64,000 bases of DNA from Alphaproteobacteria bacterium (GCA_963422645.2 CAXXVO010000015.1:163363-227362), one strand, 5' to 3'; shown: positions 24,739-30,603, counted from the stretch's first letter. Notes: generated from the letters alone by a model not told the origin. Translations and numbers: made by a program.

Positions 24739-25140
24739 ATGCCTACCGACGATGAGTGGGCGTTGATCGAACCCCACATGCCCGAGGTGCAATCTCTGGG
24801 CCGGCCGCGGACGACGGACTTGCGGGAGGTGGTGAACGCCATCCTGTATGTCCTGCGCTCGGGCTGCCCCTGGCGGTTGATGCCCAAGGATTTTCCGCCG
24901 CGTTCGACGGCGCTATTTCGCCGCGTGGCGGGACGAGGGGCTGTGGGCTGGGATCAACCACGCCTTGCTGACAGCGGCGAGGGAGGCGGAGGGTCGTGAG
25001 GCCGCTCCGTCCGCCGGCGTCATCGACAGCCAGTCGGTGAAGAGCACGGAAAGCGGTGGTCCACGGGGCTTTGACGCTGGCAAGAAGGTGAAGGGCCGCA
25101 AGCGCCATATCGTACCGACACCGGCGGCCTGCTGCTCGCC
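24739..25140 (+). pseudogene. IS5-family (IS1031-like) transposase, 5' part, frameshifted and split by IS21 copy B
   Basis: [10 protein letters not shown]...GRPR...[13 protein letters not shown]; IDSQSVK...GFDAGKKVKGRKRHI. Confidence 0.85.
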
Positions 25141-26137
25141 TGCAAGATCTGGCCGCATTTGACCGCAGTTCTGATTTTATCTGACCGCCATTCTGATTTT
25201 ATTTGACCGAAGTTCTGGCGACATCTGACCGCGATTCCGGCGGCACTTGACCGTCGGAGGTCGGGTCCGAGGCCCGGCCTGATCACCCTGCGGGCGCCAC
25301 CCACATCCATGTTCCCGGGCGCGCCGATCCTCTCCCGGCTCAGCCTCATCGATTCATCGATCGACTCGAGGAGGCAGGGCCCCAATGAAGAGGATCGACA
25401 CCATGAGCATCAGGGACATCCTTCGGCACCATCACGACCTGGGCTTGCCCCGGGCGGAGATCGCGGTGGCCGTGAGCGTGAGCGCGGGGACGGTATCGAA
25501 CGTTCTGGAGCGCGCACAGGCGGCGGGTCTGTCATGGCCATTGCCGTCCGATCTCGACGATGACGGGCTGCGCGCGCGCCTGTATCCGCCGGCGCCGCGA
25601 GAGAGCGGGTATGCGCAGCCGGACTGGGATGGTGTGCTCCGTGAGCTTCGAGCCAGGCGGAAGCGGCGCCGGGTGCACGCGACGCGCCGCACGCTTTGGG
25701 AGGCGTACCGCGACGAGACCAGGGCCCGGGGTGGGAAGGCGTACAGCTATAGCCAGTTCTGCGCGCGCCTGAAGGCGCACCAGGGCAGCTGCGGCGGCTC
25801 GGCGCAGATGCACTTCGACTGCGAGCCCGGGCTGTACGGGATGGCGGACTTCTCCGGCAAGACGCTGGCCCTTCGCACCGGGCGCGGCGAGACCGACGTG
25901 GAGATCTTCGTCGCGGTCCTTGCGCATTTGAACCTTCCGTAATGGGGCAGTTGATGTCAAACACAGATATTCACGATCTTCCGGCTTGGCACGGTCTCTT
26001 GAACATGAAGAACCATCGCCTGCGGCCGATCGTCGTCCCAGGCATGGTCAACATAGGTGGTTACCTTGGCAAAAGCTGCTAACTGACTCGCCCGGCGCGG
26101 CACAGAGAAGGAACTACGATCCCGGATGTGTCCGCCG

Positions 26138-26287
26138 CCAGGCTCTCGCTTCCGTCCGTGGTCGGCGCAGCGGCCGCCAACGTCATGCCTGGTCCAAGAC
26201 GATTCCCGAGTGCCGATCTGATCTACGTGCTCGACCGCAACAGGGCGGTTCGGCGAACAGGGTTCAAAACGCGCATCTTCGGGAACC
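26138..26287 (-). ncRNA. Predicted bridge/seek RNA core of the IS1111-type element (limits approximate)
   Basis: Stem (TTCCCGA 26203/TCGGGAA 26279) enclosing GATCTGATCTACG and GGTTCAAA, which match the two flanks of the insertion site on opposite strands. Confidence 0.7.
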
Positions 26288-26379
26288 GCGTCCCGGCGAG
26301 GGGACACCGGTGGATCGCCACCTTCAGGCGCGACTCTTTCCTCCTCTCCTAATTGACTGTCGGTGGGATGCAGCCGCGC

Positions 26380-27423
26380 CTATGCCGTCTGCAGCGCCAT
26401 CGCCTCCTCGCGCGTAAACCGGAACCCGGCGCCGTCCCGCCACATCCGATGGAGCACCACGCCGATGCGCCGGGCCAAGGCAACCGTTGCACGCTTCTTG
26501 CCCCGGAGCTTCGTCAGACGCTGCGCCCAGGCCTTCAACCAGTTCGGGCCGGTGGTGCGGTTCAGCATCACCGTGGCAGCCTGATAGAGCGCCGAGCGCA
26601 GACCTGCGTCGCCACACTTCGTGATGGCGCCGACGATATCTCGCTCGCCGGATTGGGCCCGTCCCGGCGTCAGCCCCACCCAGGGGCCGACATCCTTCGA
26701 TCTTCGGAAGCGCCCGGGATCGTCGATCGCGGACATGAAGGTCAGCGCTATGACGTGGCCGACGCCGGGCATGGTCATGAGCAGCCGGCACACCGGATCT
26801 TCCCTGGCCAGATTACGGACCAGCTTCTCCAGGCCGGCCAGCTCGCGGCGCAGAGCCGCCCGCGCGCGCAAGATCGGTTCGGCCGCGGCTTCCAGCATCG
26901 CGTTGCCGGCGATCAATTCCCGGACGCGGGCCTCGTAGCGGCCCTTGGAGACCTGGCCCAGCTTCAGGCCGAAGTTGCGCAACACGCCGCGCAGTGACAG
27001 CTCCATATTGGTGAGCGCGTTCAGCACCGACTTGCGCGAGGTCAGCAGCGCGCGCATCTCCTGCGATGACACCGACTTGCAGTGCACCGGCCGGAACCAG
27101 CCCATCTGCAGCAGCCGTGCGATGCCCTCCGCATCCCGGCGATCCGTCTTGATCGGCATCGCCTTCAGCGCGGCCTTCACCCGCCGGGTCTCCATCAGCA
27201 CGGCCTCGAAGCCGGCGCCGGTCAGACCCTTGTGCAACCAGTGGGACAAGGGACCGGCCTCAAGACCGATCGCGGCGATCTCGTGCTCCAGCTTGCCCAT
27301 GAACGCAACGAGTGCTTCAGGCGTGCTGGCTACCTGCGCCTCGGTAACGATCTTCCCCTTCTCGCCGATGACGCAGATTGACGTGCTTGCCAGCGATACA
27401 TCCAGCCCGATATAGACGTTCAT
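26380..27423 (-). CDS. IS110 DEDD recombinase
   Basis: MNVYIGLDVS, LEAG, KTDRRDA, MPGVG, QSGE. Confidence 0.95.
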   Translation of the reverse strand: MNVYIGLDVSLASTSICVIGEKGKIVTEAQVASTPEALVAFMGKLEHEIAAIGLEAGPLSHWLHKGLTGAGFEAVLMETRRVKAALKAMPIKTDRRDAEGIARLLQMGWFRPVHCKSVSSQEMRALLTSRKSVLNALTNMELSLRGVLRNFGLKLGQVSKGRYEARVRELIAGNAMLEAAAEPILRARAALRRELAGLEKLVRNLAREDPVCRLLMTMPGVGHVIALTFMSAIDDPGRFRRSKDVGPWVGLTPGRAQSGERDIVGAITKCGDAGLRSALYQAATVMLNRTTGPNWLKAWAQRLTKLRGKKRATVALARRIGVVLHRMWRDGAGFRFTREEAMALQTA

Positions 27424-28624
27424 GTCGTTGCCCTTTCCTTCGAGGAATTGGGGCGCGCCTTGCGGCAAGACCCCGTGAACACGCTGAGCGTGTAAGGGCA
27501 ACGACACCCGATTCGCTACCATCGCGACAGGCTTCAACGGTGCCGATTGGTGCCGAGCCCCATTACGGCATCTGATCTGATCTGATCTACGCCGAGGCGG
27601 TCCCCGACCAGACGGTGCGCCACTGGACGATGGCCCACCGGCGCGCGCTCGGGTACTTCGGCGGCACCCCCCGCCGGTGGATCATCGACAACCTCAGGTC
27701 AGGCGTGGACGATCCCGACCGCGACGATATCCGGCTCAATCCGAGCTTCCGGGAGTTCGCGCTCCATTACGGGATCGCAGTGCTGCCTGCGCGCAAGTAC
27801 CGGGCCACCGACAAGGGGCTGGTCGAGAGCTGCGTCAAGGCCGTCCAGACGCGCCTCCTGCTGGCGCTGCGCCACCAGACCTTCTTCTCCCTCGACACCA
27901 TGAACGCGGCCATCCGCCGCGAGCTCGATCGCCTCAACGATGCCCCCATGGCCAAGTGCGGCGAGAGCCGCCGCGCGCTCTTCGAGGCGAACGAGCGGAC
28001 GGCCCTGGCCGCGCTGCCGGCTCACGCCCGGGAGTGGGGAGAGTGGGTCGAGCGCAAGGTCGGGCCGAACTGTCACGTCCGCTTCGAGCGAAACCACTAC
28101 TCCGCGCCGGAGCGCTACATCGGCCGCCAGGTCGACGTCCGCGCCGGCGAACGCATGGTCGAGGTGTTCCTCGAACGCGGCGGCGAGCGCATCGCCGTTC
28201 ACCGCCGCAAGGCCGGGCGCAACCAGTACGCCACCACCCCCGAGCACATGCCGGAGAACCACCGGGCGGTCTGCGATATCCGCCGCCCCGATTACGGCGA
28301 CATCCTGCTCGGCCAGGCGCGCCGTATCGGAGCCAATGCCCTGGCCTGGGCCGAGCGGTGCTACGCCTCGCGCGACTTCCCCGAGCAGGCCTTCGCCACC
28401 GTGCAGGGCATGATCCGCCTCGCCGACGATCATGGCGGCGATCGCCTCGACGCGCTCTGCGCCGAGGCCCTCGACCTCAACCGCCTCGCGTCTGGCTTCC
28501 TCAGGGAGAGGATCAAGAACGGCGGCGAGCCCGGTCGGCCGCGCCCCGAGCACGACGAGACCATCCCCAGCCACGGCAACATCCGCGGTGGCGACTACTA
28601 CGGCAACAACGGAGGAGCGACACC

Positions 28625-29398
28625 ATGACCCTGCGACAATCCAACATCGACCGCCTGCTGCAGCTCGGCCTCAGCGGCATGGCCGAGGCCCTGGAGGAGC
28701 AGCGCGACATCGCCGACGTCGACCAGCTCGGCTTCGACGACCGCCTCGCCTTGATGATCGAGCGCGAGGCCGGGCACCGCGATCACAAGAGCTATCCCGG
28801 CCATCTGCGCCAGGCCCGGTTGCGCATCCGCGCCGACGTCCAGGACGTCGACTGCCGCGCAGGGCGTGGCATCGCCCGGACAACGCTCACCCAGCTCGCC
28901 GCCGGCGACTGGATCCGCCAGGGCCACAATCTGATGCTGGGCGGGCCAACGGGATCCGGAAAGACGTTCGTCGCTTGCGCGCTCGCCCGTCAGGCCTGCC
29001 GCCAGCACCAGTCCGTCCTCTATCGCCGCGTCCCCGAGTTGGTCGCTGCCCTCACCCGCGCCCGCGACAAAGGCACGCTCGAGCGCCTGATGGGCCGCCT
29101 GGGCAGGGTCTCTCTGCTGGTCCTCGACGACTGGGGGCTGCAGGGCTTCTCCGCCGAGGGCCGGCGCGACCTGCCGGAGATCGTGGAGGCGCGCCACGGA
29201 CGCAAGTCCATCCTCGTCGCCAGTCAGATCCCCGTGGAGCGCTGGCCAGAGGTGATCGGGGAGCCGACGGTCGCGGATGCGGTCCTCGACCGCATCGTCC
29301 ACAACGCCTGTCGCATCGAGCTCAAGGGAGAGTCCCGGCGCAAGCGCAACAAGCCGCCGCCACTCGACGGCGGCGACGGCAACAGAGCCCCGGCCTGA
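28625..29398 (+). CDS. istB: IS21 helper ATPase
   Basis: GPTGSGKT, LDDWG, ADAVLDRIVHNA. Confidence 0.92.
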   Translation: MTLRQSNIDRLLQLGLSGMAEALEEQRDIADVDQLGFDDRLALMIEREAGHRDHKSYPGHLRQARLRIRADVQDVDCRAGRGIARTTLTQLAAGDWIRQGHNLMLGGPTGSGKTFVACALARQACRQHQSVLYRRVPELVAALTRARDKGTLERLMGRLGRVSLLVLDDWGLQGFSAEGRRDLPEIVEARHGRKSILVASQIPVERWPEVIGEPTVADAVLDRIVHNACRIELKGESRRKRNKPPPLDGGDGNRAPA

Positions 29399-30090: not shown

Positions 30091-30603
30091 CTGAGCGGCG
30101 CACCCATGACTACAAGCGCAACGGCACGACCTCGCTCTTCGCCGCCCTCGACGTTGCCACCGGCTCGGTCATCGGCAAGTGCTGTCGCCGCCACCGGGCC
30201 AGAGAGTTCCCCGACTTCCTGAAGGTGATCGACCGCAATGTCCCGGACGGGCTGGACATCCACATCGTCATGGACAACTACGCCACCCACAAGACGGCGG
30301 GGGTCAAGGCTTGGCTGGCGCGGCGGCCGCACTGGCACGTCCACTTCACACCGACATCGGCCTCGTGGCTCAATCAGGTCGAGCGCTGGTTCGCCGAGCT
30401 CACGCGCAAGCAGCTGCAACGCGGGGTGCACCGCTCTACCCTCCAGCTCGAGGCCGACATCCGCGCCTTCATCGAAACCCACAACGAAGACCCCAAGCCC
30501 TTCAAGTGGACCAGGTCCGCCGACGAAATCCTCGCCGCCGTCAAGCGCTTCTGCCTGCGGGTCGAACAAAACTTATGCCACGAACTTTAGATTCAGGTGA
30601 CTA
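30091..30603 (+). pseudogene. IS630-family transposase, C-terminal fragment and right end
   Basis: [19 protein letters not shown]...MDNYATHK...[16 protein letters not shown]; ends at a TA. Confidence 0.88.

Follow-up and report, generated by a model that had tools for sequence, protein, structure and literature searches.

Targeting guided by an RNA was reported in 2024 for insertion sequences of the IS110 and IS1111 groups, together with natural and engineered reprogramming of the guides (PMC11187229, PMC11208160). According to the description of the IS1111 elements ISEc11, ISPa11 and ISKpn4/ISPst6 by Siddiquee et al. 2024 (PMC11187229), these encode a DEDD transposase of 330-350 aa with the motif GL-P----SG, carry subterminal repeats of 11-13 bp and have a long non-coding region 3' of the transposase gene. 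Usually 7 bp on the left and 3 bp on the right extend beyond the repeats, a trait given there as typical and not as defining. The same report describes short seekRNAs of about 82-96 nt and, for ISEc11, a long form of about 154 nt, in which two segments overlap at the insertion point and the complement of the top strand lies 5' of the complement of the bottom strand; for ISEc11, the 82-nt short form alone is stated to support movement, better than the long form (PMC11187229). In the account of IS621 given by Durrant et al. 2024 (PMC11208160), a target-binding loop is followed by a donor-binding loop, each of which reads both strands, the core dinucleotide is CT and a circular intermediate is used. 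The bridge RNA and recombinase of IS621 are also treated in solved structures (8wt6 and others) and by Hiraizumi et al. 2026 (PMC13626964).

The whole stretch of 64,000 nucleotides that we analysed (hereafter, the window) contains an element of this kind, IS-A, inserted in the istA gene of an IS21 element (Table 1). We estimate at roughly 0.9 the probability that IS-A is an RNA-guided IS1111 element, in which a two-loop RNA from the 3' non-coding region directs a DEDD/serine recombinase to the istA target. The observations behind this reading are sequence matches, covariation of the guides with the flanks and with the right end, covarying stems, identical copies and an empty-site allele.

Table 1. 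Features of IS-A and of its surroundings (window positions unless a genome contig is named), with the guide blocks of the sibling subtypes; a slash separates the core from the right flank.
Feature	Position	Strand	Remarks
IS1111-type insertion sequence (IS-A)	25936..27571	-	1636 bp; ends from the comparison of three insertion sites in the same genome
Transposase/recombinase gene	26383..27423	-	347 aa from the ATG at 27423; motif GLTPGRAQSG
Right subterminal inverted repeat	25938..25949	.	plus strand CCGTAATGGGGC; perfect 12-bp match to 27557-27568
Left subterminal inverted repeat	27557..27568	.	plus strand GCCCCATTACGG
-35-like hexamer TTGACA	25956..25961	-	17 nt before GAAG at the right end
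Two-loop non-coding RNA module (predicted long seekRNA/bridge RNA)	26134..26292	-	159 nt; full-length match to covariance model R1
Target-binding module	26199..26289	-	91 nt; both guides in an internal loop between outer stem and capping hairpin
Predicted donor-binding module	26138..26192	-	CCAGGC/GCCUGG stem, internal loop, inner hairpin
Target guide 1, UUUUGAACC	26261..26269	-	complement of the top (transposase-sense) strand immediately right of the core (G+GTTCAAA)
Target guide 2, CGUAGAUCAG	26218..26227	-	equals top-strand left flank and core AG; complementary to the bottom strand
Putative donor guide ACGGAAG	26149..26155	-	same as the terminal 7 nt on the right, core AG included
Possible second donor guide GGCAU	26185..26189	-	complement of ATGCC, the 5 nt with which the left end begins; overlaps the stem
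5' part of interrupted IS21 istA	25385..25935	+	NCBIfam NF033546, profile positions 1-146
3' part of interrupted IS21 istA	27584..28628	+	NF033546 positions 151-294; remainder of Pfam rve, Mu-transpos_C_2
istB of the same IS21 element	28640..29398	+	NF038214, IstB helper ATPase, 239.6 bits, cutoff 200
10 additional bp (two surplus GATCT units)	27574..27583	.	between core and istA flank
Subtype A, block 1			reverse complement GGTTCAAAA; core and right flank G/GTTCAAAT
Subtype A, block 2			GTAGATCAG; left flank and core CGTAGATC-AG
Subtype B, block 1			reverse complement AGTGGGCCCA; AG/TGGGCCCC
Subtype B, block 2			GCTGTGGAG; ..ATTGG-AG (own genome), ..GTGTGG-AG (two other genomes)
Subtype B copies, L004-L009	G000 C18:202917, C11:61106, C8:526953, C8:523874, C8:417731, C3:192895
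Subtype C (six sites), block 1			reverse complement AGACGCAGCG; AG/ACGCAG..
Subtype C, block 2			GCGACCAAG; ..GACCA-AG
Subtype E, block 1			reverse complement AGCCGCTCGCA; AG/CCGCTCGC
Subtype F, block 1			reverse complement AGCACCGAAA; AG/CACCGCAC
Subtype F, block 2			GCGGCAAAG; ..TGGCAA-AG

IS-A is a member of the IS1111 group of the IS110 family. Its transposase carries the two domains that mark the family, N-terminal DEDD/RuvC-like (DEDD_Tnp_IS110, PF01548, 5.5e-16 in Pfam) and C-terminal (Transposase_20, PF02371, 4.7e-23), and matches NCBIfam NF033542, "IS110 family RNA-guided transposase", with 248 bits at a cutoff of 140. Both its length and its motif fall within the 330-350 aa and GL-P----S(T)G of the IS1111 group, the subterminal inverted repeats are perfect over 12 bp (about 11-13 bp in the group), and the longer non-coding region lies 3' of the transposase gene, with 447 nt downstream (25936-26382) versus 148 nt upstream (27424-27571). 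In the PDB, the sole solved relatives of the transposase are ISCro4 (9t56) and IS621 (8wt6), matched with E values around 1e-12 over the C-terminal half only; GLTPGRAQSG aligns with the same motif in ISCro4. A search of a plasmid collection returned 12 records, all of 60-80% identity and none covering 80% of IS-A, with no named close relative among them.

Read in the sense of the transposase, IS-A begins with ATGCCGTAATGGGGC and finishes with GCCCCATTACGGAAG. These ends are fixed because the copy in the window could be compared with two identical copies on contig C8 and with a 277-nt fragment on contig C5 of the same genome. One copy of the CT core (AG on the minus strand) stands at either edge of the element, at 25934-25935 and 27572-27573, versus a single AG/CT in the empty target. 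Assigning the right core copy to the element gives terminal extensions of AAG on the right and ATG on the left (3 bp each); assigning the left one instead gives AGATG (5 bp) on the left and 1 bp on the right, and neither count reproduces the usual 7 + 3 bp of IS1111 elements. The TTGACA hexamer near the right end, of which TTGAC is invariant at that spacing in all 20 aligned copies as well as in the further copies L182 and L176, could combine with the left end into a promoter across the junction of a circular form, although the -10 element would be poor. No back-joint of such a circle was found among the contigs of four public runs, and contigs cannot show rare forms.

The two C8 copies (L002 and L003, C8:627084-630308 of genome G000) are 100% identical and stand in tandem, the second one lacking its first 58 nt. 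Their junction reads ..ACGGAAG/CGAATC.. versus ..ATGGTAG/CGAATC.. in the full copy, the break falling at an AG inside the element, in a sequence that agrees with the right end at 5/7 positions. This tandem may be a product of the recombinase or an assembly artefact; its junction was not among the contigs of the public runs compared, which proves nothing. The C5 copy (L010, C5:45714-45990) is a 5' fragment of IS-A with 99% identity and looks as if it were cut off by the end of an IS3-type element; beyond it lies a 301-aa ORF that we take to resemble IS3 OrfB. A lone right end of a related element (L014, C9:177376-177448), 85% identical over 73 nt and ending ..CCCCATTACGGAAG, has no adjoining transposase gene.

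The insertion splits istA in the region of its catalytic core, and the restored target reads TTTGAAC-CT-GATCTACG. The interrupted IS21 is single-copy in its own genome, and we compared it with 14 uninterrupted relatives from eight genomes of the same genus (most of them 92-95% identical, two 78-81%, and one, a partial copy, 99%), which read TTCGAACCTGATCTACG or close variants at the insertion site. None of the 14 is identical to the target in the window: eight differ from it by a single base, C in place of T at position three of the site, where a U-G wobble is possible; the others have two (three relatives), three (one relative) or four (two relatives) differences. The base concerned is window position 25928, at which istA has T (TTG, Leu) and all 14 relatives have C (TCG, TCC or TCA, Ser); the guide matches the T. 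The empty site was also found in contigs of the runs X1, X2 and X4, which join 25933 directly to 27582. The depth of this joint is 3.4 in X1 (about 10 for the flanks) and 27 in X2 (about 58), measured with only 30 nt on each side; X1 and X2 come from the same study, and the joint in X4 belongs to a diverged IS21 copy, a contig of 1,938 nt. One of the runs may be the source of the window itself, and therefore the joints are not independent support.

The restored target in istA that the first-pass annotation had proposed is thus supported by the relatives and by the joints, with one correction, namely the two extra GATCT units that it had overlooked between the core and the istA flank. In the sense of the transposase, the extra units at 27574-27583 bring ATCAG to three in a row; they are missing from all 14 uninterrupted relatives and from the empty-site joints, which have a single unit. 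They may have arisen when the element left more than once at the AG located five bases upstream and inserted again into the same target, or by replication slippage. Beside the left end of a distant copy (L157, genome G047), the left half of the target is duplicated, with GCGGCCTGAG present twice, 4 nt apart. The IS21 element is itself inserted in a transposase gene of the IS4/IS5 family (24739-25160; DUF4096, 5e-23, followed by the start of DDE_Tnp_1 at 20.6 bits, below the cutoff of 23), and with IS-A inside IS21 this makes three nested mobile elements. Further along the window, a 110-bp segment (30091-30200) has seven further occurrences in the genome, 94-98% identical (C18, C8, C6, C3 twice, C15).

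The flanks of IS-A are matched by two blocks of its minus strand, TTTGAACC (26268-26261) and CGTAGATCAG (26227-26218), over 8-9 and 10 nt on opposite strands of istA. Both guides stand in one internal loop, are complementary to opposite strands and meet at the insertion point, as described for seekRNAs. Their order is also that reported for IS1111 elements, with UUUUGAACC, the complement of the transposase-sense strand, 5' of CGUAGAUCAG, taking as "top" the transposase-sense strand after the convention in the text of that paper. The guide of IS-A (subtype A, see below) has no base for the A of the core unless a 1-nt bulge is allowed. The match lengths observed (10 and 8) were reached together in 1 of 2000 shuffles of the non-coding region, a result that is by itself modest and suggestive only, and the right-hand length alone was reached in 125 of 2000. 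We consider the matches to be beyond chance because the guide blocks covary with the flanks in sibling elements.

The guides belong to a 159-nt module within the 447-nt non-coding region. On the minus strand, UUCCCGA (26285-26279) pairs with UCGGGAA (26209-26203) to form the stem of the target loop, and CCAGGC (26192-26187) with GCCUGG (26143-26138) to form that of the donor loop; the MFE structure contains both stems, whether the module alone or the entire non-coding region is folded. The folding energy of the module is ordinary (z -0.16; 74 of 200 shuffles fold as well), that of the whole non-coding region has a z of -1.86, and Rfam gave no family at E values up to 1 over 25000-28500. When 20 homologues were aligned to the covariance model, 93% of the cells were paired and 22 of 40 pairs were altered on both sides; none of 500 shuffles reached these values, and slid controls paired at 27-37%. 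Helices 1-3, those of the target module, had 91-95% of cells paired and two-sided changes in 18 of 26 pairs, and the donor stem (helix 4) 86.5% and 4 of 6, in an alignment that was fitted to the model, and so to this stem, and hence leans toward it. In a model-free alignment of ten close relatives covariation was weak, with four pairs, a number matched by 41 of 500 shuffles. RNAalifold proposes a long-range helix closing both loops and another pairing of the donor arm, which fits the close relatives about as well as the CCAGGC/GCCUGG stem does. We prefer the latter because it shows more two-sided changes than the alternative (2/6 versus 1/7 pairs in the ten close relatives, and 4/6 in the wider set).

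The second loop carries a match to the ends of the element around the same core. On the plus strand, CTTCCGT at 26149-26155 is identical to the CTTCCGT of the junction at 25934-25940. The match follows the right end twice: in the sibling subtype B both donor block and right end read ACAGAAG, and in L182 both read ACCGAAG. It fails once, in L176, where the guide is ACGGAAG and the right end ACCGAAG. The putative second donor guide, GGCAU, offers no covariation, since the left end is identical in all siblings.

As for the first-pass annotation, the strings and the two stems that it had quoted were all found at their positions, one guide being equal to the left flank and the other complementary to the right flank, and CTTCCGT, enclosed by CCAGGC/GCCTGG, is the same 7 nt as the donor junction. 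Folding recovered both stems, and the IS110/IS1111 layout of target and donor loops that it had recognised is borne out, with one guide per DNA strand and a second loop matching the element ends. Covariation, which it had suggested as a check, speaks for the stems on the model-fitted alignment (the 22 of 40 pairs) and weakly on the model-free one.

Relatives of the element were present in 17 of 44 genomes, including 15 of 20 other genomes of the same genus and 1 of 10 of one other genus. The transposases of these siblings are 85-90% identical at the DNA level, and their guide blocks differ. When the final 420 nt of 20 copies from seven subtypes are aligned, the scaffold is nearly invariant except for two hypervariable blocks of about 9 nt, exactly at the two guides, and these short blocks change together with the flanks of each sibling (Table 1). 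This was counted over 17 pairs of guides and sites, after dropping the C8 copy, whose right side is the tandem junction, and two copies without left end. On the left flank, a subtype's own guides match on average 4.24/7 positions, versus 1.51/7 for 102 cross pairs; on the right flank, the mean longest run is 7.1 for own guides versus 2.95 for cross pairs (maximum 6). The agreement is poor in subtype D (right run of 5), in subtype G (3/7, run of 3) and at one site of subtype C (run of 3). The genome of IS-A itself holds six copies of an 85% identical sibling with other guides (subtype B), two of them without a normal right end.

A covariance model built from ten copies was used to search genomes of the order and of the class, and further copies were found in 7 of 49 and in 4 of 151 sampled genomes, respectively. 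The match between guides and flanks is kept in distant copies from two other families, those of G103 (AGAAATT, AGCAAT) and G140 (9/10), and it also holds in G029 (AGGATCTC); it is absent in L181, and in L157 the right side matches at only 5/8 positions. This natural reprogramming is the strongest evidence for the guides, and we regard it as decisive.

The istA site is the only perfect match to the guides; it extends over 17-18 nt and falls on a codon block, ..NLIYAEA, that is conserved across IS21 relatives. In the own genome there is no second exact copy of the 17-mer target, and 10 matches at three mismatches were counted versus 4 for the reversed control. The site on C8 shares the central TCAG/GTTC, with 7/9 and 5/9 guide positions matched, and lies in a non-IS gene. 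At the C5 fragment the left side matches 7/9 guide positions. An IstB gene (277.6 bits) follows this site immediately, which by position puts the site in the 3' part of a different IS21-type istA, at a place that does not correspond to the insertion in the window; the 99-aa fragment itself matched no family. Among loose contig ends, X2 has a further flank that shares GGTTCAA, and a flank in X5 shares only the core and one base. Insertion of other copies at unrelated sequences, which the first-pass annotation had named as an argument against its reading, is not what these sites show, since C8 and C5 are near-cognate; its question whether other copies sit in istA has a divided answer, with C5 in a different IS21-type istA at a non-homologous place and C8 in a gene outside any IS.

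The pattern of the guide pair gave no match in the collection genome_contigs, and no other genome or metagenome contig carries the pair; a single match in metagenome_contigs was discarded as chance, having no similarity to the element. The exact 17-mer target occurs at 64 loci of genome_contigs, with an estimated chance expectation of about 70 in 596 Gb, and none of the 64 adjoins an istA homologue in tblastn searches with the two istA halves.

The targets of two sibling subtypes could also be recognised. That of subtype B (..ATTGG-AG-TGGGCCCCTGGGG..) follows an IS3-like transposase gene (HTH_21/rve), 24 bp downstream of its stop codon, and probably belongs to the terminal repeat of that element. 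Subtype F (L028, G043:C1:4871752-4873197, and L047 in G038) is inserted after ATGGCAAAG, three codons into an IS3-type orfA (HTH_Tnp_1, 3e-7), with the same left flank in the two genomes. Subtypes A, B and F, the three with identifiable targets, are thus all inserted in other insertion sequences. C, D, E and G have flanks of mixed gene content (amidohydrolase, reverse transcriptase, TrwC relaxase, IS66 transposase and a DUF4189 match under the cutoff), and Pfam matched nothing in 15 of the 20 fragments compared; some copies of E and C are located in genes for IS66 transposase, relaxase and reverse transcriptase.

The guide matches might be due to chance or be a relic of flank capture, the protein alone selecting the target. 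The unremarkable folding energy and the right-hand match length, which 125/2000 shuffles reach, agree with this, but the two matches occur jointly in 1/2000 shuffles, the blocks follow the flanks in at least six sibling subtypes and in distant relatives, on transposases 85-90% identical, and the mechanism published for the family is RNA-guided, which together leave this explanation very improbable. A narrower alternative keeps the target loop as the sole guide, with the ends recognised by the protein via the subterminal repeats and the ACGGAAG match being incidental or needed for folding. Here too the donor block argues to the contrary, since it equals the right end in three states, ACGGAAG, ACAGAAG and ACCGAAG, through two independent changes and is otherwise invariant despite its place in a loop, and bridge RNAs with a donor loop are predicted for 93% of IS1111 elements; we judge this alternative unlikely. 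In its favour are the sufficiency of the 82-nt short seekRNA of ISEc11, which outperforms the long form, the left-end match of just 5 nt, which overlaps a stem and faces an invariant left end, the exception of L176, which breaks the link between donor guide and right end, and the G-to-A change of subtype B, which can also be read as compensatory in an alternative helix (columns 102/142). As the short seekRNA alone suffices for ISEc11, the role of the donor loop is therefore the least certain part of the two-loop reading that we prefer.

A different objection accepts the guide RNA as real and holds that "aimed at istA" is an over-reading: guides would drift, those of this lineage would at present match a site in an IS21 copy by coincidence, and insertions in mobile elements would survive because they are costless to the host. 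We consider this quite possible, somewhat short of an even chance. It is consistent with the single perfect-match insertion and the guide pair that recurs in no other genome or metagenome contig searched, with the C for T that deprives 14/14 uninterrupted IS21 relatives of a perfect target, with the positions of the C8 and C5 copies and with the mixed flanks of C, D, E and G, 15 of 20 of whose fragments are without a match. Weighing against it are the perfect match of 17-18 nt to a conserved codon block, the 8 of 14 relatives that have one mismatch, open to wobble, the location of subtypes A, B and F in other insertion sequences, and multi-copy mobile DNA being an established class of targets for the family (IS4321/IS5075). 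Judged by base matching, the guides specify the istA site, and near-perfect sites are common in the IS21 copies of the genus; a selected aim at istA is plausible. The claim of a recombinase naturally aimed at istA hence stands for the perfect match of the guides to the site and is weakened by its being one perfect-match insertion in one genome, with loose specificity. A broader view would be that the lineage diversifies its guides within one genus in order to home into resident mobile elements (istA for A, IS3-like elements for B and F), the GATCT units being scars of recurrent excision at a shifted AG and renewed insertion into the same target; we put this forward tentatively and rather doubt it.

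For an RNA-guided IS1111 element with two loops, as we read IS-A, we take over from the mechanism published for the family how the RNA would be transcribed, processed and bound by the protein, as well as the circular intermediate and the exchange of strands. The RNA would probably be transcribed with the transposase gene, from a promoter made when the ends join, and would bind the recombinase; the public RNA runs X17-X20 contain less than a tenth of the sequence words of the stretch. Its 5' guide, UUUUGAACC, would pair with one DNA strand to the right of the CT/AG core, and its 3' guide, CGUAGAUCAG, with the left flank on the opposite strand, extending over the core. The donor loop, with ACGGAAG and perhaps GGCAU, would likewise read the joined ends of the excised circle. 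The recombinase would then exchange strands at the shared core dinucleotide, giving an insertion in one orientation without target duplication.

If the homing reading were true, the evolution of the guides would follow mobile DNA present in many copies, which offers landing sites that are safe and themselves mobile, and the transposase of a competitor would be knocked out in passing. A preference of such elements for other mobile DNA is hinted at here, and we claim no enrichment. In any case, at least nine guide pairs on an 85-90% identical scaffold, within one genus and each with its own insertion sites, form a natural data set on mismatch tolerance (near-cognate sites, possible U-G wobble) and on guide reprogramming in nature, and the same data bear on whether the donor loop matters in IS1111 elements.

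Among the described systems, IS-A is like ISEc11, ISPa11 and ISKpn4/ISPst6 in the size, type and motif of its transposase, in its subterminal repeats and in the long non-coding region 3' of the gene. It is also like them in the sizes of the RNA (91 and 159 nt here) and in the two segments that overlap at the insertion point. Unlike these elements, it has another target and a scaffold without Rfam match, and it is known here from sequence alone. The siblings have a parallel in ISEc11 and ISXne4, for which natural redirection by replacement of guide bases alone is reported (PMC11187229). With IS621, IS-A shares the order of the loops, the predicted reading of both strands by each of them, the CT core and a recombinase of the same family, the protein match covering the C-terminal half only (E 1.5e-12). 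IS621 belongs to the IS110 group and is described with its RNA in the left end, upstream of the gene, and with subterminal repeats of 2-3 bp; in IS-A the RNA module lies at the right end, an arrangement reported for 93% of IS1111 elements (PMC11208160).

The location of the targets also has a counterpart in the family. IS4321 and IS5075, of the IS1111 family, reportedly target the terminal repeats of Tn21-family elements. Subtype B is like them in being inserted in the terminal region of another mobile element, here IS3-like, whereas the target of subtype A is in a transposase coding sequence, IS21 istA, and not in a terminal repeat. A search of titles and abstracts found no published description of a target inside the transposase gene of another element, which we regard as a modest twist on the known mechanism. 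Since the seekRNA/bridge-RNA system is already in print, IS-A is therefore a clear new example of it and not a new mechanism.
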